DNA of 64,000 nucleotides from Escherichia coli (GTDB lineage Bacteria > Pseudomonadota > Gammaproteobacteria > Enterobacterales > Enterobacteriaceae). Both the position numbers and the translations under genes were made by a program. A model generated the notes under the pieces. It searched no databases. It was given only the letters and a program-made list of their open reading frames with translations, and was not told the origin of the DNA. The DNA lies in assembly GCF_011045215.1 (NCBI RefSeq), contig NZ_CP049201.1; one strand, 5' to 3'. Below are positions 5,891-39,828 of the stretch, piece by piece; position 1 is the first letter of the stretch; each line of letters opens with the position of its first letter.

Positions 5891-6212
<322 letters not shown>

Positions 6213-6214
6213 AA

Positions 6215-7729
<1,515 letters not shown>

Positions 7730-13182: not shown

Positions 13183-13267
13183 GCCGAAGTGGCGAAATCG
13201 GTAGACGCAGTTGATTCAAAATCAACCGTAGAAATACGTGCCGGTTCGAGTCCGGCCTTCGGCACCA
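13183..13267 (+). tRNA. leuX: tRNA-Leu (anticodon CAA)
   Basis: 85-nt sequence GCCGAAGTGGCGAAATCGGTAGACGC...TTCGAGTCCGGCCTTCGGCACCA with CAA anticodon loop, long variable arm and encoded CCA end. Confidence 0.93.
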
Positions 13268-18893: not shown

Positions 18894-20156
18894 TTGAAAT
18901 ATAAAATAAAAAGATTGAAGAATAAAGATGGTATCAGAAGTTGCATTATTATTAATGAGAGCAACGGATTACCCTTGGTTTATTCTAACTTATATATGAG
19001 TGTTATTTCACGAACAAATAGCTATTCATTTTCAACAATGGAAGCAATAGCAAATGCTTTGCTTTTATTTGAAAGATATAATGCTTACATGAATGTGGAT
19101 GTTTTTGATATGGTAAATCCTGACATCGAAAAACTTGTCTCGAACAAAGGATATTTATTCGGGTTAATGAATGCCCTTTCTTACAGAAACGACTTAGAGA
19201 ATGTTACAAGCATTCTTAAAGAACAACATGTCTCTAAAAGAACCCTTTATTTCAAGATAATGACAATTGAAAATTACGTCAAATGGTTTTTTGATAACAT
19301 TGCTATCAATAATATTGATTCTTCTCGTTATGAAGCAATCAGTCGAGCATTTGATTTTATAAAGCCAAGAATAGAGAACGGAAAGAATTACAATATTGAA
19401 AGCGAAAGCAAATCATTGACAAATGAGCAAGTTACAACTTTGACTGATATGGTAAGTGTTAAATCTAAGATTAATCCATTTTCGGAGCATGTAAGGTTTC
19501 GAAATAATCTAATAATTAAAATTTTATTAGAGACAGGTATTAGGGGAGGGGAACTACTTAATATTAAGTTGGTTGATTTTGACTATGTCCACAAAAGTCT
19601 ATGCATAGTAAGAAGGCCAGATGATCAAAACGAACCACGATTAAGGCAACCATTGGTTAAAACTTTAGAAAGAAAAATACCATTGAGTATAGAATTGACT
19701 GAGTTAATACAGAATTATATTAGTGATTTCAGAGGTAAGCAGTGTCATGCAGGGGAGCATGACTATCTGCTTGTTACTCATAGCAGTAAAGGTCAATTAG
19801 GTCATGCATTAACTATTTCAGGTTATCAGAAAATTTTCGAACAAATTAGGAAAAATAGTAATGTTTTGAGCGATATTGTGGGGCATTCGCTAAGACATAC
19901 TTGGAATGTGAAATTCTCAGAAATGATGCTCATGAATTCGAACTCTCAGGAATATATTACTTATGAGAAAGTAAGAAATTATCTTATGGGGTGGAAAAAG
20001 AATAGTACAACCTCAGATATCTATAACCAAGCATTTATAGCACAAGAAAGCCGAAAAATAATGGCTGTTATTAATCCACTCAAAAACATAGTAGAGGACA
20101 AATCCAATGTTTCAAACTCTAAGAAAGCTACAAGAAAGTCAATATTCGGTTTTTGA
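18894..20156 (+). CDS. Tyrosine recombinase-like protein A (first of three tandem genes)
   Basis: 420 aa, probable TTG start; catalytic-domain elements TGIRGGE (Arg box), HSLRHT and a C-terminal Tyr (TSDIY). Confidence 0.75.
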   Translation: MKYKIKRLKNKDGIRSCIIINESNGLPLVYSNLYMSVISRTNSYSFSTMEAIANALLLFERYNAYMNVDVFDMVNPDIEKLVSNKGYLFGLMNALSYRNDLENVTSILKEQHVSKRTLYFKIMTIENYVKWFFDNIAINNIDSSRYEAISRAFDFIKPRIENGKNYNIESESKSLTNEQVTTLTDMVSVKSKINPFSEHVRFRNNLIIKILLETGIRGGELLNIKLVDFDYVHKSLCIVRRPDDQNEPRLRQPLVKTLERKIPLSIELTELIQNYISDFRGKQCHAGEHDYLLVTHSSKGQLGHALTISGYQKIFEQIRKNSNVLSDIVGHSLRHTWNVKFSEMMLMNSNSQEYITYEKVRNYLMGWKKNSTTSDIYNQAFIAQESRKIMAVINPLKNIVEDKSNVSNSKKATRKSIFGF

Positions 20157-21432
20157 AACCAAGGATGGTAATTTCAAAGTGAACTTTTCTTATTCCAAGT
20201 GGAAGATAAGTGAAAGTATAACATTGAACATTGATTCTTTAAGAGTGGTCATCAGTGCATATATACCTATCAAAACCACTTTGGCATATTTCGCTATAAA
20301 TTATAGTGCCAGTTATACTAAGAAAATGTTTTATGCAGTAAAGCATTACATTAAGGCCTGTAATACGAATGATAGCTTGTTTTCTAAAGATTGCATAAAG
20401 TATTACTATAAAGTTGTGAGCTCATTAGATTACACACATGCAGAGACAGTCAAATATTTTTTTATGAAGATGAGTGGTCTTTACCCATCTTTGTTTTCGG
20501 CAGAAGCAATCATATTTTTAGAAAATATTAAAGTTAAAAAAACAAATGCAAACAAGTCTATAAAGACACATGATTATAAAAAAGGTCCCTTTAGTGACTC
20601 GCAATTAAAGGTAATTATAGATTCTGTAGCGATAGCTTATAAGGAAGAAAAGGTAAGTCTGTCAAACTATCTGCTAACCTTCCTTGTTGCATATTCCGGG
20701 CGGCGACCTATGCAAATATCTCAACTTGAAGCTGGTGATCTCTTTGCTTTTAATGGAGAGTACTTTCTCAATATCCCAAGAATTAAACAACGAAATGGAT
20801 ATAGAAAAGAGTTTAGAAAATTACAAATTCCAGAAGAGCTTTTTAGCCAATTGACATATCTCGTTGAAGCTGTGAATTCGCTGGTCAGTGACACATTAAA
20901 AATCGATTTAAGTGAAAAACAAAAGAGAAAACTACCAATTTTTATAAACACATATCCATTCAAAAAAGGATGTGTTGAGCTAAACATGATTGAAAGTGGT
21001 GGATTAAAACTTAACCCCTATGCCATAACACTAAAAATAAGGAACACTATAAATCGTTCAATAAATGAATATCAAGCCTATCTGGGGTGTATAAATTCGC
21101 GCAGATTTAGATATTCATTAGGCACTAAGGTTGCACAATTGGGTTATAGTCCTTCACTGATAGCAAATGTTTTGGACCATTCTTCAATCAATTCTGTTAT
21201 GAGTTATATAGAAAATACAGCGGAAAATGGCAAGAGAATTAATGAAGCTGTAAATGAACTAATGAAGCCACTGGCTAACAAATTTATTGAGGGAAAAGAG
21301 CTTCAGAAAGAGTTAGATTCTTTGAAGCATTTGATAGAAGAATACTGCGGTGGATATAAAACTAACTCTTTTGATAATACAGCAATATCGTTAGTAACTA
21401 ATTCTATCGACGATATGATCAATAGCATTTAA
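20107..21432 (+). CDS. Tyrosine recombinase-like protein B (second of three)
   Basis: 441 aa; AYSGRRPMQISQLE Arg box, box II RRFRYSLGT with Arg in place of the usual first His, and a C-terminal Tyr (VMSYI); GAGGA ribosome-binding site; overlaps gene A by 50 nt. Confidence 0.7.
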   Translation: MFQTLRKLQESQYSVFETKDGNFKVNFSYSKWKISESITLNIDSLRVVISAYIPIKTTLAYFAINYSASYTKKMFYAVKHYIKACNTNDSLFSKDCIKYYYKVVSSLDYTHAETVKYFFMKMSGLYPSLFSAEAIIFLENIKVKKTNANKSIKTHDYKKGPFSDSQLKVIIDSVAIAYKEEKVSLSNYLLTFLVAYSGRRPMQISQLEAGDLFAFNGEYFLNIPRIKQRNGYRKEFRKLQIPEELFSQLTYLVEAVNSLVSDTLKIDLSEKQKRKLPIFINTYPFKKGCVELNMIESGGLKLNPYAITLKIRNTINRSINEYQAYLGCINSRRFRYSLGTKVAQLGYSPSLIANVLDHSSINSVMSYIENTAENGKRINEAVNELMKPLANKFIEGKELQKELDSLKHLIEEYCGGYKTNSFDNTAISLVTNSIDDMINSI

Positions 21433-21444
21433 AAGAAGGATAAA

Positions 21445-23052
21445 GTGATGAAAGAAATCCATGATAAAATGATTAATAACTTCATTATCGCTAATAAGGC
21501 CCATGCGAAAAATTTTGGAAATTTTGAGTGGGATAATTCAAGTTGGGGAGGCGGAATTACATTTTTTAGCGGAATCAAGGTTAGAATGGGGAACAAGAAT
21601 AAGAAATTAATGAATTATAACATTGCAGAGTTCGCAAAAGCATATGTATGGCATGAGTGCTTTCATGATTTATCTGTAGCTTTCAGAGTGCTGAGATTAT
21701 TTAGGATATTAGAAATTGCCATAGGTAAAACAAATAAAGAAGTTAAGATTTCAAGTATAGATCATAAAGTATTAGATGAAGTTATGACTATTGTTCAAGA
21801 AAATTTTGCAATATCCACTTCTTATAAAATATATTTAGATCTTAGGGTATTATGTTCTTTTATGTCTAAGAACGAAATGTTGCCAGAATCCATTACACGA
21901 TGGTCATATCCATTTAAGGCATATGATGCTTACACAAATAGCACAATGGATTCGATGGGAAATTTATCCAATCAGAAAAAACTTCCTGATGAAAAGGCTA
22001 TAGATTTTATTGGTAAAATATTTAGCTCTAATCCAGTTAATGAAAGGGATATATTTACATCTTCTATTTTTGCATTGCTCTTATGTGCTCCATCTCGAAT
22101 TAGTGAAATTATGCTTTTAGAAGAGGACTGTGAAGTTATAGTTGAAGATAGTAATGGCATATCAAGATATGGTTTGCGATTTCTTTCTCTGAAGGGCTTT
22201 GGATACAATACCAAATGGATTCCAGACTGTATGGTTTCTGTAGCTTCAAAGGCTATCATGCGATTGAAAAAACTTACAAGGAATGCAAGGGTTGTTTCTC
22301 GGTTAATAAAAGCAGGGGAAATTAATTTATACGAGTCATTAAACAAAAGTGCGTTTGATTGTTTAACAATTGAAGATCTCCACAAACTTGGCTTTGTTAT
22401 AAATCAATTAAATATCTCCCAAGAAAATCTAAAATTCTTGGCTAAGATAAAACATGGTACAGTCAGTGTAAAAGCATTTTGGATTTATATAGAGCGAAAG
22501 AATGTTAATTCTGAAAATATTAATGCTAATTTATGCTCCATAAATCATAATTTATTGGACTCTATCAAGGGTGCTGATATTTTTACAACAATTAAGGCAT
22601 CTTCAAAGTATTTTAGAGCGGATTTTCGCACCGATAATATGAATAACATATTTCATAGGAATATACATTTTAACTGTGATGGTTCTGTTTTAATTTTCCG
22701 CAGCCATCAAATTAGACATTTACTTAATACTATAGCTCAACGAAGCGTATTGTCAGAGATACAAATTGCCCAATGGTCTGGGAGAAGGAGTGTTAAGCAG
22801 AATTCAGTATATGATCATATGTCTCACAACGAGTTATCAGAACTATCAAGGAAACTATTGAACGGAAACACCTACGAAGAAACAAAAATTTCAGCATCTT
22901 CATTTAATGAACAATCGATTATTATGAATTTGATTAAAGATAAATTTGAAAAACTAGAATTAAAAATCCAAAATTCAGATCCAAGAAAAAGAAAATATAT
23001 TCTGGAAAAAATTAAAGATTTAAGATTGGAAATTGAATACATATTAATGTGA
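21445..23052 (+). CDS. Tyrosine recombinase-like protein C (third of three)
   Basis: 535 aa, GTG start; CAPSRISEI Arg box, HQIRHLL box II and a C-terminal Tyr (NSVYDH). Confidence 0.7.
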   Translation: MMKEIHDKMINNFIIANKAHAKNFGNFEWDNSSWGGGITFFSGIKVRMGNKNKKLMNYNIAEFAKAYVWHECFHDLSVAFRVLRLFRILEIAIGKTNKEVKISSIDHKVLDEVMTIVQENFAISTSYKIYLDLRVLCSFMSKNEMLPESITRWSYPFKAYDAYTNSTMDSMGNLSNQKKLPDEKAIDFIGKIFSSNPVNERDIFTSSIFALLLCAPSRISEIMLLEEDCEVIVEDSNGISRYGLRFLSLKGFGYNTKWIPDCMVSVASKAIMRLKKLTRNARVVSRLIKAGEINLYESLNKSAFDCLTIEDLHKLGFVINQLNISQENLKFLAKIKHGTVSVKAFWIYIERKNVNSENINANLCSINHNLLDSIKGADIFTTIKASSKYFRADFRTDNMNNIFHRNIHFNCDGSVLIFRSHQIRHLLNTIAQRSVLSEIQIAQWSGRRSVKQNSVYDHMSHNELSELSRKLLNGNTYEETKISASSFNEQSIIMNLIKDKFEKLELKIQNSDPRKRKYILEKIKDLRLEIEYILM

Positions 23053-25259: not shown

Positions 25260-26405
25260 CTATAAACGAATTTTTATCGCCTTGTTTAAAGGTTTCATTG
25301 CGTAGATATTTGAGAAGGTCGTGTGTGTTTTGTGAAGAATGGTCTTACCAAAGCTTCTCAGAAGCTCGATGTAATGCTTTATGGAAGCAAGCCACTCTAC
25401 GAATCTGAGATGCTTTTGCCGTTGTACTGCATTTTTTTGAAGAATCTTTCCTACGATTTCGTTTCGTTTGTCTTCTCTAAGCCGTAATTCCAGTTCTGCA
25501 ATTTTTTCAACGATACTTTCCTTTCTCTCAGTGGTTTTCAACACTGTTGCAGGAGCAGGAGCAGCAGGTTGGTCTTTTGTCGATATGTCGCTTCGTAGAG
25601 CTTCTAAGTGGTCGGGGTTGTAGTTAAGCCGATTACTGAGATTTGCCCAGGAGTAGCTCTTGCCCAATTGTGAAGCTTTGAAAGCTATGCCTGTGTATTC
25701 GAAAGAGAAGCCGTTCATTTTACCGGTAGAGGCAATATTGGCCTTCCAAGATACTTCAGCTTCTTCCAGCCTCTTGATAAAAGTTAGAAGGTCCGGCTTA
25801 TCAGATAAACTTTTATCAAGTATCTGCTGCAGAGCTTCTCTTGGTGAAAGCACCCCGGTTCGTTCCGATAGCATTTTCTCATTACGGGACACTCTCTTCC
25901 GCTTCGGTTGTGCTTGCGAGGGGGGAGATGCAGTTTTGGTCACTGTCAGGCCATGAGCGATTTCGAGTTTACTGATGATCTGTGTGCTGATGAGGTTTTC
26001 GTTCCTACCCAAGTAGAGCTTCCCACCATTGAGATCTATGCGACTTGCGATAATGTGTATGTGCTGGCCATCGTCGTCATGAAGCACATAGCAACGAAGG
26101 TGAGTATCCCTGAACCCCATCCTCTTCATGTAGTCATCTGCGATAATGGACCACTGTTCATTCGTTAGTGTTTCACCGTCGGGTAAGCGAAGTGAGTTGT
26201 GCCAAACGGGTTTTGCGACATCTAGGCGAAGATGCTTGGTGCTATCGAATTCAGCGATCATTTCAACGGCTGAATCACTTAACATGTTCCCGCCAATGAC
26301 GACTGGATCGCTTTTGTGGTGTGCTCCCGATTGTAATACATAACGAACAACACCAGCGAAGCTCTTACCCCTCTTGATCTTCCGCATACCCTTCACGAGG
26401 GACAC
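25260..26405 (-). CDS. Relaxase (MobA/VirD2-type mobilisation nuclease)
   Basis: 381 aa; three-histidine motif HDDDGQHIHII typical of the relaxase/mobilisation nuclease domain; overlaps the upstream mobC-like gene. Confidence 0.75.
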   Translation of the reverse strand: MSLVKGMRKIKRGKSFAGVVRYVLQSGAHHKSDPVVIGGNMLSDSAVEMIAEFDSTKHLRLDVAKPVWHNSLRLPDGETLTNEQWSIIADDYMKRMGFRDTHLRCYVLHDDDGQHIHIIASRIDLNGGKLYLGRNENLISTQIISKLEIAHGLTVTKTASPPSQAQPKRKRVSRNEKMLSERTGVLSPREALQQILDKSLSDKPDLLTFIKRLEEAEVSWKANIASTGKMNGFSFEYTGIAFKASQLGKSYSWANLSNRLNYNPDHLEALRSDISTKDQPAAPAPATVLKTTERKESIVEKIAELELRLREDKRNEIVGKILQKNAVQRQKHLRFVEWLASIKHYIELLRSFGKTILHKTHTTFSNIYAMKPLNKAIKIRL

Positions 26406-26739
26406 TCCAAAAATCTGTTCTTAACAAGTTGTGACGAAGCTCTTCAAGTTGTCGCTTCACAGCGAAAAGCTCTGTATGAGTAAGCTGGCTATCTTTACTC
26501 TTACTGTCGATATGGAGAGCAATACGATTCAACTTTTGTGATATGTCAGACAATTTTTTCCAGGCTTCAGTATTAATTGTCGGTACTACTGGTGGCAGGT
26601 TTTGCAGAAATGACATGCGGAGCCATTCACCTTTACTTTTATTACCTCGTTTTATATTTAAAATCTGTAATTCATTGTTGTTGAGTCGAACACTTATACA
26701 ATGTATTCTAATTCTGTCATCTAATCTTAATTTAGCCAT
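26365..26739 (-). CDS. MobC-like relaxosome accessory protein
   Basis: 124 aa; KLNRIALHI resembles the MobC N-L-N-Q-I-A-R motif; 41-nt overlap with the relaxase gene. Confidence 0.65.
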   Translation of the reverse strand: MAKLRLDDRIRIHCISVRLNNNELQILNIKRGNKSKGEWLRMSFLQNLPPVVPTINTEAWKKLSDISQKLNRIALHIDSKSKDSQLTHTELFAVKRQLEELRHNLLRTDFWSVPREGYAEDQEG

Positions 26740-26885: not shown

Positions 26886-28049
26886 TTAAGGATGATCTAT
26901 TGAAACAAACTTTTGACTAAACTCCAGCCATCTTGCATTATCAACATCCTTCACAAAAGCAATCAGACCTGCGACATGATTGTAAAAGCCAATTGGAGAG
27001 TCAAATTTTTCATGTCTTGCAACTTCTGAGAGACCAAATTTTTTTATTGAGTAAAGGTGGCGTTCAATACGTTTATAAGTTTGTTTAGATAATCGAGGGA
27101 CATTGCCATCAACAAGTAATCCTAAAACTATTTTTTTTGAACCAGGTCCAGCTACTCTTATTTTGCTTACGTTTTCTTTGAAATGGTGCTTACGAATGAT
27201 GCTGATAATGTTATTTTGTATTTTTCCAACCGAAACACCGTCGGGTAGAGTACCACCGCAGGATAATGTTATATCATCAGCATATCGAGTATAAGTGAAG
27301 CCATATTTATTAGCATATTCAGATAGAGAAATATCTAACTTTACAGTGGCTAAATTACTAAGCATTGGGCTACTCGGTGCCCCTTGAGGTAGCACTCCTA
27401 ACGGCCATGGTTCTGATATGTCCCAAAAAAGGCTCTTCTCTTTATTTTGTCCGTAAAGCTTATATTCCTTAGTTGAGTGCTTAGGAACAGAAATTAGAGA
27501 TTGTAAATGTTGTGGTAAACGTATAGTTGTGCATAGCCTTGATAGTTCAAATGCTATTAATGGCCGATATCCAGCATTTTTAAAAACCATATAAACATCA
27601 GATTCATTTATTGAATAAAAGAAATCGGAAATGTCGAATTGGAAGAGCCATTTAGCACCACAATGCTGTTCTGCACATTTTCTGATGCCACCATTAGGAT
27701 GGAAAGCAAAAGAAGTATTATGGGGAACTAACTTTTTTAATATTTCACTATTGATGAAATGCTGTACTTTAAATATCTCGCCAGTTACAGCATGAATATG
27801 GCGTCTTCCACCTGAACGTTTTTTTATAGCAAACATGCGATAATTTGCTGATTCACGGCGGCGTGATACAGTGGATCGTAGCAAGCGATAATCAACACCA
27901 GTAATTTTTGAAAGATGGCGTAATGTAAAAATTACAGGGAGATTATTTTTCTTCAGATTACTTGCATAATTTCTTAAGTTTAGAGCCTGTGTCTTCCCTA
28001 AGGATGACTCTGCATTTTGATAAAGTTGGTGTGCTGACCAGATTTCCAT
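26886..28049 (-). CDS. Reverse transcriptase, retron-type or defence-associated
   Basis: 387 aa; motifs FDISDFFYSI, LPQGAPSSP, catalytic YADD, and a thumb-like KIRVAGPGSKKIVLGLLV; no maturase, endonuclease or other extra domain. Confidence 0.85.
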   Translation of the reverse strand: MEIWSAHQLYQNAESSLGKTQALNLRNYASNLKKNNLPVIFTLRHLSKITGVDYRLLRSTVSRRRESANYRMFAIKKRSGGRRHIHAVTGEIFKVQHFINSEILKKLVPHNTSFAFHPNGGIRKCAEQHCGAKWLFQFDISDFFYSINESDVYMVFKNAGYRPLIAFELSRLCTTIRLPQHLQSLISVPKHSTKEYKLYGQNKEKSLFWDISEPWPLGVLPQGAPSSPMLSNLATVKLDISLSEYANKYGFTYTRYADDITLSCGGTLPDGVSVGKIQNNIISIIRKHHFKENVSKIRVAGPGSKKIVLGLLVDGNVPRLSKQTYKRIERHLYSIKKFGLSEVARHEKFDSPIGFYNHVAGLIAFVKDVDNARWLEFSQKFVSIDHP

Positions 28050-28237: not shown

Positions 28238-29458
28238 TCACTCATCATTGTTTAACGGCTGAACGGAGTGCTGATCAGCACACCAAGACTCTGGAATGTA
28301 AAGACCAAAATCCCATACACTATCGTTTTTAACATGCCTAGAATTTACAAGTATGTCAAGTCCGAATTTAGATAATCGTTTTTGAGTTGTCAATAGTCCT
28401 AATGTCTCTGCATATATGAGTAGTTTTTCTACATACGAACAATCAACATTCAAACGTAAGGCAATGCTTTTGTTATCTCTGACACCTCTTTTTATAAGTT
28501 TTAGTAAATTTATAATTTCGGGAGATAAAGATGAATGGGGGGAAGTGTTATGCTTTGTTCCATTTTCTAACAAGGCAAGCAGCCATCCTGGAATTGCTCT
28601 ATCAGGCATTAGTCCTTGCCATTTTTTATTAGAAAACCATAGTATTCCAGGAAGGTTATTAGGGACGCTATGATAAAAAATTATATTAGATAAAACATTA
28701 CCATAGCCAAGACGAGCCCATGGAGGAATTTTGGTTTGATTTTTACAAAGATTGATTATTTCATTATACTGCTCACCCCACCGAGTTTCTAACCAATTTT
28801 CATTATATACGATGTTACTTATGAAATTGATTTTTTCAGATTTTCTATATTTTCTTACTCCATGGTCTGAGCCGCGAATAGTATTGATTATTCTATTTTC
28901 AGAACCTAGTGTTCTGGCGAAAGAAATTAAAGTTAATCTTACTAGTCCTAAACTCCACCAACTTAAAAAGGTAGGGTTATCGAGCATGGCATTAATAAAT
29001 CCGGATACTCTATCACCACTACCAATCGAATCATCAATAAGTAAAAAATCGTTGACTTTAGATTTTTTCAGATCATTGAGTGATGGATGATCTAAAAACA
29101 TAGTTTTATTAGACCGCACAAGGTTTGAAATAATTGAATATACTAAGTCTTCGCTACCTTGCGAATGACCTGGTCTATTAACAACATCACCATTAAGGTC
29201 CCATAATACTTGTTTGTCTGGATCTAATTTGCGAACTGAATAAAGGGCATAATTTTTATTTTTTGGTAAATCAGAAATGCTCTTTTGAAGCCATATGGTA
29301 AACTCATCTCTACTTACAAAAGTTAACTTGCTCAAGATGTTTTTTGCAATCGCTTTTTGGCTGCTATTAAATTGCATAAGCCATTGAGCTATTTCCTGAG
29401 AGGATTCAATTTTTTCTACTGAAAGTATTTTAAATTTAGGTTTGTCTCTTGTTTTCAT
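28238..29458 (-). CDS. Phosphoribosyltransferase-like protein with a C-terminal helix-turn-helix region (candidate effector)
   Basis: 406 aa; PRPP-binding-type motif FLLIDDSIGSGDRVSG in the N-terminal half; HTH-like KSIALRLNVDCSYVEKLLIYAETLGLL near the C-terminus. Confidence 0.65.
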   Translation of the reverse strand: MKTRDKPKFKILSVEKIESSQEIAQWLMQFNSSQKAIAKNILSKLTFVSRDEFTIWLQKSISDLPKNKNYALYSVRKLDPDKQVLWDLNGDVVNRPGHSQGSEDLVYSIISNLVRSNKTMFLDHPSLNDLKKSKVNDFLLIDDSIGSGDRVSGFINAMLDNPTFLSWWSLGLVRLTLISFARTLGSENRIINTIRGSDHGVRKYRKSEKINFISNIVYNENWLETRWGEQYNEIINLCKNQTKIPPWARLGYGNVLSNIIFYHSVPNNLPGILWFSNKKWQGLMPDRAIPGWLLALLENGTKHNTSPHSSLSPEIINLLKLIKRGVRDNKSIALRLNVDCSYVEKLLIYAETLGLLTTQKRLSKFGLDILVNSRHVKNDSVWDFGLYIPESWCADQHSVQPLNNDE

Positions 29459-29693
29459 TTTTTTTAACCACTGTCAGGGCAATTGTTATTTCATAACATA
29501 AAAAGTAATGATGGTAAAGGTTTTGTTGTATCATTAACCTTCTTTATAACTGAGTAGACTAAGTTTAGTACTCTTATACGAAGCTAAATGAGCTAAATAT
29601 TAAATACTAAAATGTAATGGCGGATATTTTTCAACCGAAGGGCGAAAAACAAGGGAACGCAAAGAAGCGGAGCTTCGATGAGTTAGCCCTTGC

Positions 29694-30278
29694 TTATTCA
29701 TATGATTTGTATTTCTTTTCATCTACTAAATTTATTATGGACGATGAGGTTTTATATATCAACTTTACATTGTGTAAAGATATATTGTGTTTGCTAATAA
29801 AATATAAAAGATCCAATAGCATCTGTTCTTGCCGTTCTTGTGGAAACTCTAATTTTACGATTGGAGTAAATTCAACAATAAAACCACTATTCAACAGTAG
29901 TTTTATGTAGCTAAATGAGTTTGGCGTAACTGTTTTGATTTTTATTATTTTATTAGTAATTAGATGCTTATGGTTTATAATAATGTGAGGGTTGAGCAGT
30001 GCCATATCATATGACATGAATGTTAAACCATGACTATCTATTATGTTCAAGTCGATACCAAGTTGTATAAACATATCGATTATTGCTTTGCTATGTATCC
30101 AGTTATAAAATAAAGGTGTCCTTCCATAGTTATCTAAATGATTTAGGTCGGCTCCTGCAGCTAAAAGAGATGTTGTAAGTAAATAGTCATTAGAATAAAA
30201 TAATGGTGTACGACCACAATTATCCTTTAAGTTTATTAAACCATTGTCTATGAATATATTAGATAAATTATTGTGCAT
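29694..30278 (-). CDS. Ankyrin-repeat protein
   Basis: Two GRTPLFY...L..GADLN ankyrin units; start placed at the Met preceded by a perfect AAAGGAGGT ribosome-binding site. Confidence 0.65.
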   Translation of the reverse strand: MHNNLSNIFIDNGLINLKDNCGRTPLFYSNDYLLTTSLLAAGADLNHLDNYGRTPLFYNWIHSKAIIDMFIQLGIDLNIIDSHGLTFMSYDMALLNPHIIINHKHLITNKIIKIKTVTPNSFSYIKLLLNSGFIVEFTPIVKLEFPQERQEQMLLDLLYFISKHNISLHNVKLIYKTSSSIINLVDEKKYKSYE

Positions 30279-30339
30279 TTTACCTCCTTTTATCATTATG
30301 TATATTAAAAAAAGGAGGTTGTCAATATTTAGAGGTTAG

Positions 30340-30588
30340 TTAACCACCAAATGTTTTTTTCTTAGGTTGTGGGGGCTCTGCATTAAGTATGATAGTTTTA
30401 ATATTTGCATTTATTTGATTGATATTATCAGTCAATATATTAATAACTGATAATGCTTCTACAGGTGTGCTAAATGATGATTCTAAAAACACGCCTGAGC
30501 CTTTCAAAAATATATGGTAAGTGAGTATGCCATTTTCTTCATTTTCATATATATCATAAAGTTCATTTACTGTTTCGTACAATTTCAT
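30340..30588 (-). CDS. Hypothetical protein
   Basis: 82-aa ORF in the same minus-strand gene string. Confidence 0.4.
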   Translation of the reverse strand: MKLYETVNELYDIYENEENGILTYHIFLKGSGVFLESSFSTPVEALSVINILTDNINQINANIKTIILNAEPPQPKKKTFGG

Positions 30589-30643
30589 TATTATACTCCT
30601 TGATAATGATGGTTTATTTCAATGGGCTCGCGATATCACTACC

Positions 30644-31519
30644 TTATAAATGATCTCCAATGTGAGCAATAGCGATTTGTGCCGGTCTATCAGGAATTCT
30701 ATTAAAGAAGCCAAAGTATATTCTATTGTAGTAATAAGTTCCTTTTCGATTAGTATTGTCCATGTATTCAAGTTTATAATGGAATTCACAATTCACGTCT
30801 TTATAGATACAATCACCCACTTTAAAATCACGTTTTAATTCCCCTATGGCTCGTTTATTTTTGCCTCCACCTTCTGGTGTTACAAGATAAGGTAACGATG
30901 AATTCATAATTCTAATGTTATGTTGTGAGTCATTAGGTATAATTGTATAGTTATTAACAAAATAAAGAAATTCAGTGATGCTTTTCAAAAAATTTTCATA
31001 TCCACCTTCAATTTTCCTAATAAAATTAAAGGTTTGTGGTGGGTTATCCAAAAAAATGACATTCTTGAAAATGTTTTTAATATTGTCAGCATATTCATCA
31101 CAATCCGATGGGAATTCATCAAGGATTTTCTTAGAAAGATCAATTATTTCACTTTCACTAGAAACTGTATTATCCTTTTTTAAAGGTATGTCTGGAGATT
31201 GATAGGCACAGAGTTTTCTTTCGGCAAGTATCGATGGGGATGTATTGATGATATTTAGAAGTTCATTGCAGCCTATTTCATCCAATAAACTAATTTGGCC
31301 TATTTTATAATACTCATTAACAAGGCCACCGTAATCAGGGTTTGTTGAAAATAATTTAGTGACAAATTTTCCATCAAATTCATTGGAGCGAAGAAACTTT
31401 ATAAAATCTGAATCCACTCTCTCTACAAGTGCTTTAAGATCTTTAATCTGGTTAAAAATCTTAATTTGTTCTTCTTCAAGAGAAAAACTATCTATGAACA
31501 AGCAAACACCTGCTTTCAT
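30644..31519 (-). CDS. Hypothetical protein (third gene of the DUF262-ATPase operon)
   Basis: 291-aa ORF starting 9 nt after the ATPase stop; no confident motif. Confidence 0.55.
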   Translation of the reverse strand: MKAGVCLFIDSFSLEEEQIKIFNQIKDLKALVERVDSDFIKFLRSNEFDGKFVTKLFSTNPDYGGLVNEYYKIGQISLLDEIGCNELLNIINTSPSILAERKLCAYQSPDIPLKKDNTVSSESEIIDLSKKILDEFPSDCDEYADNIKNIFKNVIFLDNPPQTFNFIRKIEGGYENFLKSITEFLYFVNNYTIIPNDSQHNIRIMNSSLPYLVTPEGGGKNKRAIGELKRDFKVGDCIYKDVNCEFHYKLEYMDNTNRKGTYYYNRIYFGFFNRIPDRPAQIAIAHIGDHL

Positions 31520-31528
31520 GAAATCCCC

Positions 31529-32680
31529 TTAATTTTCAATATCAGGAGTATTAAATGATCCTGTCATAATGGTATACATATCAATTGATTGCTGGTCAAA
31601 GAATCCTTTCGGCCAACTAGAAAGTTTTCCATCTTTGCCAATAGATATCTTTTCTGCAGTAGATTCATTATTCTCATGTGAAATATAAAATAACGAAATT
31701 AGCTCAGGTGAAAAGTCAGGAGATGTTCTTGCTACGACACGGATTCCGTTGAGAAGGTGATCGCTATGAGTTTCTATGAATACCTGTACTCCCGCTTGAG
31801 CAGTGTAAGCTATTAATCTACCCATATAGCTTTGTCCTCTAGGGTGCAAATGGGCTTCCGGGTTTTCTAAAACTACTAATTCGCCCGGTTTTGCTAAAAG
31901 TAATGCTGAAACAATACTCAAAGCATAGCTATAACCAAAACCAATGTTTTTGGGTTTAGTTTGTTTTCCTGACTCAGCCTGTATTGTGTTATAAGCAATG
32001 TTTGCACTAACTTCCAATTTTGGCTGTATTTTATAATTTGGGGATATTTCATCCATCCATGCCTGTATATTATTCGCAACCCTTACATTATTATAATTAT
32101 GATGTATTCTTGGGTCGTCTTTATTTGGATTACCATCTTTCAGTATTAGTCTATCTTGCCTATTCATTATATTGTCTAATACTTCGATGACATATTCACC
32201 TTTTTTCCCCAACCAATCGCTATGAAAATTGTGTTGTGATAAAGAAATATTGTCTCTTGGACCAATACGTTCGGCTTCAATATATTGAAAATTACTTGCA
32301 TGTATAAAGTTTTTAATTGTTTTAATGCTATCCATACCTGAAATACATGGAAGTTCATTACGAAGATTTGCTGAGTCCTCTTGTGTAACCCCCCAACTGA
32401 CTTCACATTCTTTAACTGAAAGAGTGATTTTCAGTTGATCATCATCTGAAATAAAGTCATTAATAATATCGTCAATACGACCAATGTTTATCAGTTCACC
32501 ATTTAACTTTATATCATTTTTACTACTAAAATCAGACTGTAACACCATACCTATGGCTTGCATTACTGTACTCTTACCGACAGAGTTATTACCACAAAAT
32601 ACATTTAGACCTGACAAATCAAAAGATTGCTCTTTGTATGATTTAAAATTTTTGAGTTTTATCGATTTAATAGGGAGCAT
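31529..32680 (-). CDS. ABC-type (AAA_21-like) ATPase
   Basis: Walker A GNNSVGKST near the N-terminus; LENPEAHLHP Walker B/D-loop region and ETHSDHLL H-loop near the C-terminus; ATG sits 3 nt after the upstream gene's stop, with a GAGGG ribosome-binding site. Confidence 0.75.
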   Translation of the reverse strand: MLPIKSIKLKNFKSYKEQSFDLSGLNVFCGNNSVGKSTVMQAIGMVLQSDFSSKNDIKLNGELINIGRIDDIINDFISDDDQLKITLSVKECEVSWGVTQEDSANLRNELPCISGMDSIKTIKNFIHASNFQYIEAERIGPRDNISLSQHNFHSDWLGKKGEYVIEVLDNIMNRQDRLILKDGNPNKDDPRIHHNYNNVRVANNIQAWMDEISPNYKIQPKLEVSANIAYNTIQAESGKQTKPKNIGFGYSYALSIVSALLLAKPGELVVLENPEAHLHPRGQSYMGRLIAYTAQAGVQVFIETHSDHLLNGIRVVARTSPDFSPELISLFYISHENNESTAEKISIGKDGKLSSWPKGFFDQQSIDMYTIMTGSFNTPDIEN

Positions 32681-32682
32681 TA

Positions 32683-34599
32683 TCAATTACCCTCATTAGC
32701 ATTAACAATCTTAATGCCTGTGCTTTGTTCAAGAATTTTCGCAAAAGAATTGAATCTATATAATATAGTTATTTTCTTTCCTGTTGAGGTAGAGATAGAG
32801 TCCTTAAACCCTCGCTCTGCTTCAATGTAAGTCTGTGAATCCCATGTGGCATATTCTTTTGAATTGCTATCAATAGCAGAATAAAGGGTATCAACCAATT
32901 TATCAGAATTTTTCAGCAATAACTCTTCTTGTTCCTCAGTAACATAATAGAAATAGTAAATTATCACTTCATAAAGTTGCTTACTTATAGGTGATGTATT
33001 AGAGCCAATCTCTTTTATGAAAGCTAAATCACCGAAAACATCATAGGCGAGGTTTAAAGCCCTCAAATATTTTCTTTCTATTTGAAGATACTCGTTGCAT
33101 TCATTCGAAATGTACGCACTTCCTAAATCTATTTCTTTTTCGTTTAATAAGTTTAATTTATATAGATTTAAGTTTTCCATGGCTTTTGATAAAAACTTAT
33201 CATAGGAATTAAAATTATAATTTTTAAAGCCAATATTTATAAATGCAAGAGCAGCAAGGCAAAGCTCCATATCCTTTTGTCTATCAGGCTTAACCTTACC
33301 ATGCGTTGCTTGTTTGAATTCGTTTTTGGATGCCAGATACCGTAAAAACTTAACACTTGAACCTTGATTCAGGGCCGAACGAATTTCTTGATCACTTAAC
33401 TTAACACCATATGTATTGATACGGTGGAATAATTCAACTATGAGATCAGTGCTATCTTTATTCATTTCTATAAAGTAAGCCGTGATTTCATATTCTCTTA
33501 TGGCTCTTTGTTCAGTGCGAGTAAGCTCACCAAACTCTTTACCATTTAAATCCTCAAGGATATCAAGTTTAGAAAGTTTAAATTCTCCACTCATAAAATC
33601 ATAAATTGTTGTGATCCGTTGTAAACCATCAACAACGACCCACTTATCTTCTGCGATTCGATTACCAAAATAAAATACAGGAAGTGGGAGTTTTAAGAGA
33701 ATAGACTCGATTAATTTAGACTTCTTCTCATTATTCCAAATACGATCTTTTCTTTGGAAGTCAGGTTGTAGTTCAATATCACCAAAATGAACCCGATCAA
33801 AAATGAGAGATAAAACCGGAGTCTTGGAGGTAATTCTTGCAACACCAAGTTTAGCTTGTAGAGTTTTTAATTCCAAGTTCAACTGTGATGATGTTGTATC
33901 ATTTTCACCCTCATCTACTCCATAAGTATTGGGTGACTCTATAAGTTCTTCTACAGTAGTATTATTACTAATTTTTAATGTTGGCACCTCTATATTATAA
34001 TCAAGAGTCACAACTGAGTTAGCCATATCTGCGGAAAGCTCTTTAAATCTATTAAGAGTAACCTCAACCATTTTTGAAGCAATTTCAGATGGGAATTTCT
34101 TCAAAACTATTTGATAAGCATCATCAAGGCTTTGAACTAATTCAACCTGCTGTTCATAAATTTTCCCAAGATTCAAATTGAGAAAATTATCAATTTTTTT
34201 TCTTAAAACCCTAAATTCAGAGCCTTGAACTTCTGATAATGTCGCTGCTTCATGGACATTATGACTACGCAATAACAGGTGTTTTTTGTTTTCATACTTG
34301 AAATGTTGAATATAGGGTAAGTTAGCAAATATTGTTTCTGGTTGGTTCCTGCTCGAAGAACTACCGTAAAGAACCTGCTCTACATTACAAAAACCTCTAA
34401 TATTTAAATTGCTGTAAATCGATTCAAGCTCTGATAATGAACGTGTTTTAGATTCAGAATTAGAAGAGACTTTATATTTACCGTTTTCACGATCAATGCT
34501 TATAATACATAGTGGAGGCGTAGAAGGATTAATTGGCTGTAGCTGTTTGCCAAAAAGAAGATTTTCGATGTCGTTTAGCACTTGTTCAAAGTTAAGCAT
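32683..34599 (-). CDS. DUF262 (ParB-like nuclease fold) domain protein
   Basis: 638 aa; central QPDFQRKDRIWNNEK...VVDGLQRITTI matches the DUF262 IPxFQR and DGQQR signatures. Confidence 0.7.
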   Translation of the reverse strand: MLNFEQVLNDIENLLFGKQLQPINPSTPPLCIISIDRENGKYKVSSNSESKTRSLSELESIYSNLNIRGFCNVEQVLYGSSSSRNQPETIFANLPYIQHFKYENKKHLLLRSHNVHEAATLSEVQGSEFRVLRKKIDNFLNLNLGKIYEQQVELVQSLDDAYQIVLKKFPSEIASKMVEVTLNRFKELSADMANSVVTLDYNIEVPTLKISNNTTVEELIESPNTYGVDEGENDTTSSQLNLELKTLQAKLGVARITSKTPVLSLIFDRVHFGDIELQPDFQRKDRIWNNEKKSKLIESILLKLPLPVFYFGNRIAEDKWVVVDGLQRITTIYDFMSGEFKLSKLDILEDLNGKEFGELTRTEQRAIREYEITAYFIEMNKDSTDLIVELFHRINTYGVKLSDQEIRSALNQGSSVKFLRYLASKNEFKQATHGKVKPDRQKDMELCLAALAFINIGFKNYNFNSYDKFLSKAMENLNLYKLNLLNEKEIDLGSAYISNECNEYLQIERKYLRALNLAYDVFGDLAFIKEIGSNTSPISKQLYEVIIYYFYYVTEEQEELLLKNSDKLVDTLYSAIDSNSKEYATWDSQTYIEAERGFKDSISTSTGKKITILYRFNSFAKILEQSTGIKIVNANEGN

Positions 34600-35499: not shown

Positions 35500-36051
35500 A
35501 TGTATGGAAAAATGGGAAAAGTTTATGATACCACTAGAATTAGTAATCTTGCTAACGACCCGAAACAGTTTTGTTCTTTTTTTTGTGAGTACATAAAAAG
35601 AGATGATATTAGTATAGATATCGCCTTGGATGTGCTGAGAATATCTTCCATCTATTATAATAGATTTTCAGTTCAGACTGAAGTTGAGTATAACAATACA
35701 TTCAAAAAATGTATTAATGAGCTAGTAAACTCATTTCCTGATAACATTGAACTAATCTCTGAGTTCGAGAGTCAATGTAAAATTATGCATGATATAAATA
35801 ATTCTTTCTTTGCGGCTACAAAATGTGCTGGTATTTGGCGTAAAAATACAAAAAAATCACATGCATTAATACTTAATCTCATCATGTTTTGTGAGATGTT
35901 TTTATCATCATTATCATCCTTGGTTGTGGTCAATGATCCTAAAAAAATGAAGAGGATTTTTCCATTATTTATCGTTTCTAAAATATTAATATTCATGCTG
36001 AACCTGATATCGAATATTTTCGAGTTATCGATAGGGCATTTGATGAGGTAG
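35500..36051 (+). CDS. Hypothetical protein
   Basis: 183-aa AT-rich ORF with a hydrophobic C-terminus. Confidence 0.45.
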   Translation: MYGKMGKVYDTTRISNLANDPKQFCSFFCEYIKRDDISIDIALDVLRISSIYYNRFSVQTEVEYNNTFKKCINELVNSFPDNIELISEFESQCKIMHDINNSFFAATKCAGIWRKNTKKSHALILNLIMFCEMFLSSLSSLVVVNDPKKMKRIFPLFIVSKILIFMLNLISNIFELSIGHLMR

Positions 36052-36098: not shown

Positions 36099-37547
36099 TT
36101 GAAACTAACTTCTTGTGTGAATAAACAAACCTTGCTTTCAATGGGAGGGTACCTTAATGAGTGGAATGTTTTTGACTCATTAAGCAGAGTAAGAGACTTT
36201 TTCAGACTAAGTAGTGCAGTATTTACAAAATTGGATAATAACATTTACTCTCTTGAGGTTGATAGTTTTTGTTTATACCGAGATTATGAGATTGCAAGAA
36301 ATAGACTAATGATGAGAGCGTCACATCTATATAGCGAAGTTCATGAATTTAGTAACAAACATTTTCATCTAAATAGTTGGGTAAAGGATCATATGCCATC
36401 TTACTTAAATTCTGATGGCGTTTTTAGCTCATTTCATCTAAGCGAGTTGGAAAATATGTCTCCTGATGACCTTCATGAAGAATATGGGAATATATCATTA
36501 TTTAATTGGGTGCACGCTTATCAATGTTTAGTCGAGTTATCTAAAGAAGAAATGAGAAAAAGATTTTCATCGACAAAACCTATACCCCTACAGTTGGATC
36601 GCTGGCTGATCATAAAAAGCCGTGAGAGTTGGTTATCATTCTTTCAACGTAAGGGGATTGCAGCAGATGCAGCAAAAAAACTGATAGATTATTTTACCTT
36701 CAATTCAAAATCACATGATCTTAATGATTGCCCATTTATTCCCTGTATGGACGGTTTATGCTTAATGCCTGCATTAATAGCAAATAGCTCAGTGACTCGC
36801 TCTCTAATGTCATTATTTGGTTCCAAAAAAATTTCTCAAGCAAGTAAAGGGCGATTTCATGAGCAACAATTTATAAAACAAGTTCGTGATGCGGGGATTA
36901 AAGCTTCTCCAATTGATGCTCATGCTAATTATCAGTGCGATTGCGTGATTCTCCTGGATGATTGTTTGATTTTTACAGAACTAAAATCAAATGGTCAACC
37001 AATATATTATGGTAAGTACTATCAGCAAGTGTGTAACATCGTTGGAGATAGCTCATTAATACATGATCATAATAATAAATTTATGCGTTCTTATTTTCAA
37101 CAAATAAATCGAATTTCTGAACATTATCTTAATCATCTTGATGTGATCATTAAAGAATTCGAACTACCATCAACATGGCAACCCAAAGGTGTGTATAAGC
37201 TTATTGTTACTACAACTATGCTCGGTGGAAAATATCATGTGGATGATACATATGTAGCGGACAAATATGCATTATCTAGTTTTTTTCAACGAATACCTGG
37301 AGTGATATATCAAACAAATGAAAATGGAAAAATGGCGAAAAATATCATTGATGGGTTTGAGTGTTGCGAAGGGGAAATCACTATCGATAAGTTTATAGAT
37401 TATCTTTCCTCTTTGCCCAGTATTAATGCTGTACGTAAAAATATAAAAAAATTAACTTATAGTGTTCGATTTAATGAAAAATTAGTCCATCACCCTTATT
37501 ATGATTCTTGGGCTTTTGGTCCATATATTCGTAAGGGAAATGATTAG
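36099..37547 (+). CDS. Hypothetical protein, possible PD-(D/E)xK-like nuclease
   Basis: 482-aa AT-rich ORF; CDCVILLDDCLIFTELKS resembles a D...ExK nuclease core, weak evidence. Confidence 0.45.
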   Translation: MKLTSCVNKQTLLSMGGYLNEWNVFDSLSRVRDFFRLSSAVFTKLDNNIYSLEVDSFCLYRDYEIARNRLMMRASHLYSEVHEFSNKHFHLNSWVKDHMPSYLNSDGVFSSFHLSELENMSPDDLHEEYGNISLFNWVHAYQCLVELSKEEMRKRFSSTKPIPLQLDRWLIIKSRESWLSFFQRKGIAADAAKKLIDYFTFNSKSHDLNDCPFIPCMDGLCLMPALIANSSVTRSLMSLFGSKKISQASKGRFHEQQFIKQVRDAGIKASPIDAHANYQCDCVILLDDCLIFTELKSNGQPIYYGKYYQQVCNIVGDSSLIHDHNNKFMRSYFQQINRISEHYLNHLDVIIKEFELPSTWQPKGVYKLIVTTTMLGGKYHVDDTYVADKYALSSFFQRIPGVIYQTNENGKMAKNIIDGFECCEGEITIDKFIDYLSSLPSINAVRKNIKKLTYSVRFNEKLVHHPYYDSWAFGPYIRKGND

Positions 37548-38168: not shown

Positions 38169-39098
38169 TCACCCCCTAAAAACCTCATTCCGATGCCACT
38201 CCACAAACCCCTCATAAGGGTAATTTTTACGCACCTGCGGCAACGCAATAGTTTTCCCGTCAAAATCCCAGAATAATCTCTCAACGATCCCTCCGCCGTT
38301 TACCGCATCTGATACCAGTACCCGCATATTTTCGTCCAGGCCAATCGATCCTTTATCAAAGGCTTTATGGTGAATTGCGCAAAGCGCCAGGCCATTAGGA
38401 ATTTCACAAGGACCGCCGTGCTGTTTCCATTTTATATGCGCCGCTTCCAGCGCGACGGTGGTGTCGTCGTGGCGCATATTAAAGCCACATATCGCGCACT
38501 GGTAGTTATAAGCGCGTAATACATTTTTGCGAAATAACGGGTCGCGCTGTTTACGGATTTGCTGGAGATCAAAACCCAGCTCGTCAGCAATTTCTTCCTG
38601 AATACTCTCGGTGAAGTGCGCTTCGAGTATCTGTTGCGCCAGAGTATTGATGAGTTTTTTATTGCCTGTTACCAGGGCGTAGTGCTGTTCATCGAAACCG
38701 CCTGCAACGTGGTATTCGTTCAGTTCCTTCACTGGCGGTTGTCGGCTGCTACCTGCTGTTGAGCAAAGCTCGGCATTGTGTAATTGCCAGAATCCGTCGC
38801 CTTGTAATCGCCAGAACGGCATATCAGGTCGGTACTGTGAACGCTGTGGCCCAAAACGTTCCAGTAAATTGTGCAGAGGTTCGTAGATTTCCGATCCATA
38901 ATCGAAAAGGCGCGGATGCCCATTCAGGTATCCCGCTAATACGTATAGCAGTAACAATGGTTTATGCGGCGCGCGCTGTTCACCCTTGTGCCAGATTTTT
39001 ATATTGGCAATTGCCTGCTGTAGCGATTTACTGGAAGCCATTGATATCCCTGGCAGTGAAATAATTGCGATCATGCTCGCAAATTTTCTGCTGTTCAA
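38169..39098 (-). CDS. HNH endonuclease-domain protein
   Basis: 309 aa; C-terminal YQCAICGF...AAHIKW...ALCAIHH HNH motif; N-terminal domain of about 200 aa unassigned. Confidence 0.7.
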   Translation of the reverse strand: MNSRKFASMIAIISLPGISMASSKSLQQAIANIKIWHKGEQRAPHKPLLLLYVLAGYLNGHPRLFDYGSEIYEPLHNLLERFGPQRSQYRPDMPFWRLQGDGFWQLHNAELCSTAGSSRQPPVKELNEYHVAGGFDEQHYALVTGNKKLINTLAQQILEAHFTESIQEEIADELGFDLQQIRKQRDPLFRKNVLRAYNYQCAICGFNMRHDDTTVALEAAHIKWKQHGGPCEIPNGLALCAIHHKAFDKGSIGLDENMRVLVSDAVNGGGIVERLFWDFDGKTIALPQVRKNYPYEGFVEWHRNEVFRG

Positions 39099-39177: not shown

Positions 39178-39828
39178 ATGAATAAACTCCCCGATCATCT
39201 TCCTCGGCGGTATATCATCAAAGCTATTCATTTATGGGATGCGGGAGAAACTCATCAGTTCCAGCCTGCACGGTTGTATGAGATTGAATATCATGGCCGA
39301 CGTTACCCCTCGAAGGCGATTGCTGGCATCGCAGCGACATTGATGACGGGGACGCAATTTACCCCTGCGGATTTCACCGGCGGAATAAAATCTAAATGCG
39401 TCAAGCTACTTATAGATCAGGGATTTCATATTCATCAGGATAAAGCCGCTGCGGCTCCCATAGCCGATGTTCTGTTCCCGGATGAGTTGCCGTCGCAGGG
39501 GACCTACGTTGAAGGTGCGGCGATAAAGGTGACGGTAAACCGCTATGAACGAGATAAAAAAGCTCGCGAGAAAGCAGTCGAACATCACGGATGCCAGTGC
39601 AACGTATGCGGCGTTGATCTGGTGAAGATCTATGGCGATATCGCTGAGGGTTTTATCCATATGCATCACCTGGTGCCGCTTTCAGCCATTAAAGAGGATT
39701 ACCAGCTGGATCCAGTTAATGATTTACTTCCTGTGTGCCCTAATTGCCATGCGATGTTGCACCGACGCAAACCACCGTTTACGCCGGAGGAGTTAAAAGC
39801 GCTGATGGATGCGAATAAATCAAATTAA
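39178..39828 (+). CDS. HNH endonuclease-domain protein
   Basis: 216 aa; CQCNVCG...HMHHLVPLS...CPNCHAMLH HNH motif; N-terminal domain of about 130 aa unassigned. Confidence 0.7.
   Translation: MNKLPDHLPRRYIIKAIHLWDAGETHQFQPARLYEIEYHGRRYPSKAIAGIAATLMTGTQFTPADFTGGIKSKCVKLLIDQGFHIHQDKAAAAPIADVLFPDELPSQGTYVEGAAIKVTVNRYERDKKAREKAVEHHGCQCNVCGVDLVKIYGDIAEGFIHMHHLVPLSAIKEDYQLDPVNDLLPVCPNCHAMLHRRKPPFTPEELKALMDANKSN

Follow-up and report, generated by a model that had tools for sequence, protein, structure and literature searches.

A presumed Type II Menshen system and a trailing small protein-ankyrin gene pair on an Escherichia coli island

We analyzed a stretch of 64,000 nucleotides (nt) from Escherichia coli (RefSeq assembly GCF_011045215.1, contig NZ_CP049201.1; the whole stretch is termed the window herein) that carries five open reading frames (ORFs) in a row on the minus strand between positions 29694 and 34599. 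We are confident that this locus consists of two things placed end to end: a Menshen defense system, presumably of Type II, encoded by genes 1 to 3 (nsnA, nsnB, and nsnC), and a separate, conserved pair formed by a gene for a small protein (SP) and a gene for an ankyrin protein (Ank), termed the SP-Ank pair herein. A first-pass annotation of the window had read the five genes as one defense operon and had not recognized their combination as a named system. The defense reading holds; the second claim was wrong, as a DUF262 protein, an ABC (ATP-binding cassette) ATPase with a DUF3696 tail, and a third protein together make up Menshen, which was first defined by Millman et al. (2022). What the locus holds is a Menshen, presumably of Type II, which PADLOC and DefenseFinder would already name; it is no new five-gene system, and only the trailing SP-Ank module and its conserved hairpin are potentially new.

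Genes 1 to 3 and the Menshen system

The five minus-strand ORFs are borne out by the ORF listing of the window, with the sizes and coordinates first given for them: 32683-34599 (638 amino acids, aa), 31529-32686 (385 aa), 30644-31519 (291 aa), 30340-30588 (82 aa), and 29694-30296 (200 aa). The spacings were also correct, with the ATG of gene 2 (32680) located at the third base past the stop of gene 1 and gene 3 following gene 2 after 9 nt; the intergenic gaps are thus 2 nt (nsnA-nsnB) and 9 nt (nsnB-nsnC), followed by 55 nt and 61 nt before SP and Ank, respectively. Two of the genes stand with other starts. For the ATPase gene, the 385-aa version from the TTG at 32686 is replaced by a 383-aa protein from the ATG at 32680, which is the best start and is used in all relatives. 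For the ankyrin gene, the 200-aa start gives way to the most likely one, the ATG at 30278 (194 aa), because AAAGGAGGT lies 5 nt upstream of it and the gene callers chose the same start in eight related loci.

By their sequences, genes 1 to 3 are a Menshen system, NsnA-NsnB-NsnC; this assignment is based on the PADLOC matches, the Pfam domains, the EN and GxG residues of NsnB, a model of NsnC that combines PIN and BECR folds, the invariant residues of NsnC, and the tight gene order. Li et al. (2025, PMC12065111) analyzed 1,997 Menshen loci and found only three conserved genes. In the window, these three are adjacent on one strand, and the order is identical in all related loci.

NsnA (32683-34599, minus strand), the presumptive sensor, matches the PADLOC NsnA profile with an expect value (E) of 2.4e-115 (residues 226-627 on profile positions 22-383 of 385) and is 99% identical to a protein of E. 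coli IAI1 that RefSeq annotates as "DUF262 domain-containing". Its ParB-DUF262 domain (GmrSD_N, Pfam PF03235; E 3e-24, residues 277-409; 33373-33771) contains the motifs FQRKDRIW (residues 281-288), DGLQR (324-328), and FHRIN (391-395), the first two of which had already been pointed out. The C-terminal part (32719-33372), the equivalent of the DNA-binding domain that Li et al. (2025) named ParBDB, is covered by the C-terminal stretch of the NsnA profile, a correspondence at the sequence-profile level only. About 225 to 275 residues precede the profile and Pfam matches. This extension (approximately residues 1-225; 33925-34599), presumed to be an additional sensor domain, lies outside both the NsnA profile and GmrSD_N and has no match in Pfam, NCBIfam, or the PDB sequences. 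It is kept in a Klebsiella relative; the Vibrio cholerae NsnA has 649 aa, but only about 100 nt of the N-terminal region could be aligned. As Type II Menshen are those whose NsnA has an additional domain N-terminal to DUF262 (Li et al. 2025, PMC12065111), the system is presumed to be of Type II from the extra region before residue 226; the same study distinguishes 33 NsnA-N families.

The 383-aa NsnB (31529-32680, minus strand) matches its PADLOC profile over the full length (E 1.2e-110) and has Pfam matches to AAA_15, AAA_21, AAA_23, and DUF3696 (the last with E 5e-11, residues 325-368). The DUF262 and ABC ATPase calls of the first-pass annotation are both confirmed by Pfam and PADLOC. The Walker A motif GNNSVGKST (residues 30-38, with K36) and the ETHSDH motif (303-308, with H305) are present as quoted. 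The Walker B motif reads VVLEN (269-273, with E272-N273) and is accompanied by GFG at 247-249, reproducing peculiarities published for the family, namely, EN in place of DE in Walker B and GxG in place of the SGG signature. The likeness of the ATPase to those of Septu, Gabija, and PARIS had been noted early on and is reasonable, given that NsnB has weak matches to the PADLOC AriA, GajA, and OLD profiles.

The 291-aa product of gene 3 (30644-31519, minus strand), previously labeled as unknown, is identified as the effector NsnC by a full-length PADLOC match (E 6.3e-94), although not by Pfam, where it has none. An AlphaFold model built from an alignment of 33 homologues (pLDDT 85.9) resembles both PIN and BECR (RelE/YoeB) toxin folds in structure comparison. 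The alignment shows H247, R266, H286, and H290 to be invariant in the C-terminal half and no conserved PIN acidic tetrad in the N-terminal half. This agrees with the architecture reported by Li et al. (2025, PMC12065111), in which an inactive PIN-like domain is followed by a BECR RNase domain. The domain at the C-terminal end of NsnC from Solibacillus silvestris is a PB-BECR1 domain with an H-R-H triad (Li et al. 2025, PMC12065111), which the four invariant residues recall. Searches of the PDB sequences with NsnA and with the NsnC profile returned nothing significant, and no solved structure of a close relative was found by sequence search.

Pairs consisting of a short NsnA-like DUF262 protein (353 to 375 aa) and a HEPN RiboL-PSP protein were observed in three of the loci fetched for comparison (L033, 7352-9148, minus strand; L034, 8874-10552, plus strand; and L035). 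These DUF262 proteins score E 1e-55 to 1e-60 on PADLOC NsnA with no NsnB or NsnC nearby, and the NsnA profile alone is therefore not diagnostic of Menshen.

The mechanism that we propose is a predicted one, after Li et al. (2025). NsnA would sense invading DNA via three parts: the ParB-like DUF262 NTPase, ParBDB, and the extra N-terminal domain of about 225 aa. NsnB, an ABC ATPase predicted to form a tetramer, would clamp the PIN-like N-domain of NsnC with its DUF3696 tails and, coupled to the binding or hydrolysis of nucleoside triphosphates, release or activate it. The C-domain of the effector, which is RelE/YoeB-like, would then cut RNA, halting phage production, probably at a cost to the cell. 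For a system whose mechanism is so far predicted, an E. coli variant with a natural allelic series offers a convenient genetic entry with coliphages.

The SP-Ank pair and its junction element

SP (82 aa; 30340-30588, minus strand) is preceded by an AAGGAG ribosome binding site (RBS) 8 nt upstream and has no match in Pfam, PADLOC, PHROGs, or NCBIfam. Its only homologues are close ones (84 to 97%), all behind the nsnC allele found in the window, with too few substitutions to test the coding status. Ank (194 aa; 29694-30278, minus strand) is modeled by AlphaFold (pLDDT 85.8) as about three ankyrin (ANK) repeats followed by a C-terminal beta-alpha-beta-alpha-beta-beta domain, and its gene is under purifying selection (ratio of nonsynonymous to synonymous substitution rates of 0.14 to 0.21). 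Neither the comparison of homologues nor the model revealed conserved catalytic-type residues or an effector-like domain. For the pair, PADLOC, PHROGs, NCBIfam, and Pfam gave nothing beyond ANK-level matches, among them a weak match of Ank to the PADLOC candidate protein PDC-M72A, and a literature search found no ankyrin family in such a context.

An HMMER scan of 1.84 billion representatives, which was swamped by large multirepeat ANK proteins, yielded two relatives of Ank of the same size (194 and 196 aa, with 34 to 36% identity). Scanning genome contigs with peptide patterns added one true family member, from Pantoea, with almost all of the remaining matches being generic ANK proteins, and a DNA pattern for D(K/N)xG(R/K)TPxFY found almost only generic ANK proteins in viral and metagenome contigs. 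No member of the family was detected in the phage and plasmid collections, where the sole match was to generic ankyrin repeats in a Ralstonia plasmid, and the window-type SP-Ank pair was absent from complete E. coli genomes even at low stringency. The closest divergent homologue, 60% identical to Ank, occurs solo, without a small gene, in human gut metagenome contigs of 23.5% GC (L002 to L007; e.g., L004, 10001-10576); almost all genes of these contigs are ORFans or encode leucine-rich repeat (LRR) and ANK proteins, no tRNA was found, and NCBIfam gave only weak matches to LRR repeats.

The instances of the pair known so far belong to four or five lineages, and their Ank proteins share 32 to 36% identity. 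Upstream of each divergent Ank, and on its strand, stands a small gene (121, 127, or 205 aa). These pairs are located behind Septu PtuA/PtuB in L033 and in E. coli ESBLEC_HM24, the latter on an island that again carries MobC, a relaxase, and recombinases. In Pantoea (L039), the pair lies behind a type III restriction-modification (R-M) system and is followed directly by MobC-relaxase, and in L034, it lies behind two unrelated genes, with a DUF262+HEPN pair and MobC-relaxase next in line. The products of the small genes are acidic (net charge of -3 to -10) and end in a basic tail of the form ..K/R..[FYL]G (KKKTFGG, RRSRYGK, SRKKYGF, or PPKLGS). The pair, an acidic small protein whose C-terminal tail is basic and an ankyrin protein with a C-terminal alpha/beta domain, lies in the same cargo slot as Menshen, and because no catalytic residues are recognizable, the pair would most likely act by binding other proteins.

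Between SP and Ank lies a conserved element (30284-30325, minus strand) consisting of TTGAC, an anti-Shine-Dalgarno (anti-SD) CCTCCT, an AT-rich loop, and the Shine-Dalgarno (SD) sequence AGGAGG, and this RNA is predicted to fold into a hairpin that hides the ankyrin RBS (-15.6 kcal/mol, z -3.8). The same layout, TTGAC, 1 to 3 nt, CTCCT, AT-rich loop, AGGAG, and start codon, is found in four lineages, with z values of the hairpin of -3.0 to -4.4 (copies at L033 6214-6268, L034 7943-7992, L039 7802-7844, and L192 12415-12469). The pattern is unique in the window, where 0 occurrences are expected by chance. In the set of 192 fetched loci, it is restricted to SP-Ank junctions of four divergent lineages, and every instance of the pair has one. 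TTGAC is invariant while its pairing partners vary, and for this reason it may be the -35 box of an internal promoter. In that case, transcripts initiated within the loop would be free of the anti-SD arm and could be translated, whereas read-through transcripts could not. If the pair is functional, it would also illustrate a cis-regulatory device conserved far more deeply than the proteins under its control.

Directly after the ankyrin stop, RNA folding places an intrinsic terminator-like hairpin (CAAGGG...CCCUUG followed by UUUUU; 29645-29693, minus strand), the inner stem of which was also reported by the terminator scan. In IAI1, this hairpin stands behind the last cargo gene, and L009 and L030 have a different one at that place. 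The cargo slot thus ends with this hairpin or an analogous one in IAI1, L009, and Klebsiella. The terminator scan detected no terminator between nsnC and the ankyrin gene; as none precedes the hairpin after the ankyrin stop, the five genes probably form one transcription unit, although they would be two functional units.

Allelic mosaic and readings of the SP-Ank pair

Comparison with related loci revealed a mosaic. Window nsnA and nsnB up to position ∼32170 are 99% identical to those of IAI1, one Salmonella locus, and L014, whereas nsnA and the 5' part of nsnB are only ∼90% identical (9 to 10% apart) to the allele in L008 to L024. Over the final third of nsnB and onward across nsnC, SP, Ank, MobC, and the relaxase, it is L008 to L024 that are 97 to 100% identical to the window. 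One crossover inside nsnB, at ∼32020-32170, explains this mosaic. In comparison to IAI1, Salmonella, and Klebsiella, similarity collapses at the nsnB/nsnC junction (31520-31670), and the nsnC alleles of these three are 47 to 57% identical to that of the window. Three nsnC alleles are joined to the same nsnAB, and one nsnC allele occurs on two nsnAB backgrounds. The mosaic displays at nucleotide resolution a shuffling of effectors that had been inferred at the family level (Li et al. 2025, PMC12065111). An independently mobile nsnC-SP-Ank cassette is not needed, since the profiles fit the single crossover inside nsnB.

The genes behind nsnC differ between these loci. A gene for a 179-aa membrane protein follows nsnC in the Salmonella locus and a 123-aa gene follows it in Klebsiella, where no ankyrin gene or remnant was found; in the V. 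cholerae locus, nothing follows nsnC, and IAI1 has no hidden small ORF behind it. The first-pass annotation had suggested that the five genes might be one co-conserved system, which did not hold in either direction: Menshen occurs without genes 4 and 5 in IAI1, Salmonella, Klebsiella (no Ank), and V. cholerae, and genes 4 and 5 occur without Menshen in L033, L192, L034, and L039. Genes 4 and 5 are therefore not components of Menshen.

Decaying copies of the locus were observed in two enterobacterial contigs, L015 (which carries miaE, rraB, and pmrD) and L016. Both have lost nsnA and retain a truncated nsnB with a stop, and they show a stop in nsnC, indels in the ankyrin gene, and a moved stop in the small ORF. 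In L014 (10311-10727), the ankyrin gene is cut by an insertion sequence element.

Several points weigh against the division into a Type II Menshen and an independent pair. The analysis is computational only, and even for the S. silvestris system, the first validated Menshen, the mechanism is still just predicted (Li et al. 2025). The QR..W motif of NsnA has four intervening residues (FQRKDRIW, 281-288), not three, and the Type II class is presumed from the unmatched N-terminal length of NsnA. For the pair, the basic-tail pattern, which is present in ∼0.3% of background ORFs, was defined after the sequences had been seen, and the only small proteins linked by significant homology are those of Klebsiella and Pantoea (E 6e-5). 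Finally, every locus with this nsnC allele (∼20 loci, on two nsnAB backgrounds) has SP and Ank as well, which leaves room for a functional tie between this allele and the pair.

For the pair itself, a binder-type module independent of Menshen is the reading that we favor as most likely. In its full form, our proposal is more tentative and may well fail in one part or another: SP-Ank would be an undescribed, self-contained two-gene module of enterobacterial mobilizable defense islands that is placed behind varied defense operons, its hairpin would uncouple ankyrin translation from read-through, and its proteins would act by protein binding, as a counter-defense or establishment factor, as a modulator, or as a new defense. 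If functional, it would add an ankyrin-based module to the defense or counter-defense repertoire.

Two narrower versions of an independent module are each unlikely when taken alone. According to the first, SP-Ank is a counter-defense or establishment module of the island, made of nonenzymatic binders near the MobC-relaxase end (presumed oriT, origin of transfer) that would be expressed on entry into a host and blunt resident defenses. By analogy, this fits the leading regions of transferable elements, which hold uniformly oriented antidefense genes (Samuel et al. 2024, PMC11541004). In the window, L034, L039, and ESBLEC_HM24, the pair shares the orientation of MobC-relaxase and is adjacent to it or one inserted system or gene away; it comes with a conserved TTGAC element and RBS control of its own; and both the lack of conserved catalytic residues in Ank and the acidity of the small proteins would suit such binders. 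However, whole defense systems occupy the same slot in the same orientation, so that position does not discriminate, and what was seen of a putative leading region is the proximity to MobC-relaxase and the orientation shared with it. The absence of the Ank family from the phage and plasmid collections and the existence of sister islands without the pair also speak against this explanation.

The second version, of similarly low probability, takes SP-Ank as an autonomous phage defense or toxin-antitoxin-like module among other systems. The pair is always found amid known defense systems (Menshen, retron, Septu, type III R-M, DUF262+HEPN, or Shedu), it is conserved at low identity under purifying selection, and the weak ANK-level match to PDC-M72A points to a PADLOC candidate. 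On the other side, it has no effector-like domain or conserved catalytic residue, it is not a PADLOC system, it is known from only four or five lineages, and its 60% identical ankyrin homologue stands solo among LRR and ANK genes.

It is improbable that all five genes form one system in which SP and Ank are accessory to a Menshen variant, for example, as a regulator or inhibitor of the NsnC RNase or as an added sensor or adaptor. This explanation draws on the common strand, the short gaps of 55 and 61 nt, the lack of a terminator until after Ank, and a distantly related small gene directly behind the Klebsiella nsnC, as well as on the constant company of SP, Ank, and this nsnC allele on nsnAB backgrounds 9 to 10% apart. 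The two backgrounds need just the one crossover in nsnB, though, with everything downstream to the relaxase 97 to 100% identical; nsnC genes of this family, invariant residues included, do without such genes in IAI1, Salmonella, and V. cholerae; and the pair stands behind Septu, type III R-M, and other systems with no NsnB or NsnC nearby. Homology of the 82-aa ORF to the Klebsiella 123-aa gene is unsupported (Smith-Waterman z -1.1, no phmmer match). The idea that the 82-aa protein is an immunity protein or antitoxin for the RNase domain of NsnC was rejected, as nsnC genes of this family that carry these invariant residues too are followed by unrelated genes or by nothing.

Island setting and comparison with known systems

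The locus lies inside a 25-kb block (13 to 38 kb of the window) of 30 to 39% GC, and the surrounding DNA has 47 to 56% GC. The flanks are those of E. coli at 98 to 99% identity, with nanS/nanM/nanC and fim genes. A tRNA scan places the start of the island at the tRNA-Leu(CAA) gene leuX (13183-13267, plus strand). The backbone consists of an integrase (13457-14707), a cytosine methyltransferase with a neighboring gene (14795-16946), three tandem recombinase ORFs of 420, 441, and 535 aa (18894-23052; three tyrosine recombinases in the homologous regions in RefSeq), and MobC with the relaxase (25260-26739); a DUF6387 gene is also present. As the mark of a GInt, we took three integrase genes in tandem with homology to GInt integrases, together with a small helix-loop-helix gene. 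Because an integrase, three tandem recombinases, and MobC with a relaxase are combined at tRNA-Leu(CAA), the island appears to be a GInt-like mobilizable element next to leuX. GInts carrying defense systems have been described in E. coli by Hochhauser et al., and Menshen is listed among the defense systems on E. coli mobile islands.

A type III-A retron is located between the ankyrin gene and MobC. PADLOC identified its reverse transcriptase (26886-28049, minus strand; RT_III-A, E 5.6e-160) and its phosphoribosyltransferase (PRTase)-like effector (28238-29458, minus strand; PRTase_III-A, E 2e-93). The 5' region of the retron (29459-29644, minus strand) is structured (z -2.7) and may be the msr-msd RNA; Rfam gave no match for a retron noncoding RNA, and a dedicated model was not tried. 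Fourteen related loci lack a retron, with MobC immediately adjoining the five genes, and relative to these loci, the retron is an insertion beside the Menshen locus. The same 14 loci led us to reject the idea that the ankyrin gene is part of the retron.

Two low-GC genes on the plus strand, 35500-36051 (183 aa) and 36099-37547 (482 aa), lie between Menshen and the island end as unassigned cargo. Their products have nothing significant in PADLOC or NCBIfam, and the 482-aa protein has no Pfam match either; it has a marginal PADLOC match to PDC-M29B (E 8e-4). Just beyond the island, an intact ScoMcrA-like gene annotated as "phosphorothioated DNA-binding restriction endonuclease" (38169-39098, minus strand) and an HNH gene (39178-39828, plus strand) were found, of which only fragments exist in E. 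coli IAI1. In the core-genome part of the window (5966-7168, plus strand), Rfam reports naRNA4 (two copies) and Ysr276, which are unrelated to the locus.

Of the systems to which parts of the locus can be compared, the leading-region antidefense islands (Samuel et al. 2024, PMC11541004) share with SP-Ank small, nonenzymatic, uniformly oriented genes near a relaxase/oriT module; no ankyrin family was reported there, so that the comparison is one of analogy, not of membership. GmrSD, SspE, and DndB have in common with NsnA a DUF262 domain with the DGxQR nucleotide-binding motif, followed by a helical DNA-binding domain, but Menshen lacks the fused DUF1524 nuclease, and its effector is a separate protein that would be reached via the ATPase. 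PARIS (AriA-AriB), Septu (PtuA-PtuB), and Gabija (GajA-GajB) likewise use an ABC ATPase to control a bound nuclease, and the geometry in which an ATPase dimer holds the effector is predicted for Menshen, too (Li et al. 2025, PMC12065111). In contrast to these systems, Menshen adds a separate DUF262 sensor, and its effector is PIN-like plus BECR RNase-like instead of a Toprim or HNH nuclease.

Among the closest systems is the Menshen of E. coli IAI1 (NC_011741; WP_000931475, WP_000936774, and WP_000643586) and of six enterotoxigenic E. coli (ETEC) genomes, with nsnA and nsnB 98 to 99% identical to those of the window; the island type and the nan/fim chromosomal neighborhood are also shared. It differs in nsnC, which is 47% identical, and in carrying an Abi gene and two other genes in place of SP-Ank and the retron. 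The Menshen of S. silvestris StLB046, the first with validated antiphage activity (against T2, T4, T6, and Fado; Li et al. 2025, PMC12065111), has the same three-gene order, a protein combining DUF262/ParB and ParBDB, an ABC ATPase with a DUF3696 tail, Walker B EN, and GxG, and an NsnC with an inactive PIN-like N-domain and a BECR-like C-domain with conserved His/Arg. That system is of Type I, whereas the window NsnA has an extension of about 225 aa, its host is enterobacterial, and two extra genes trail the three that both systems share.

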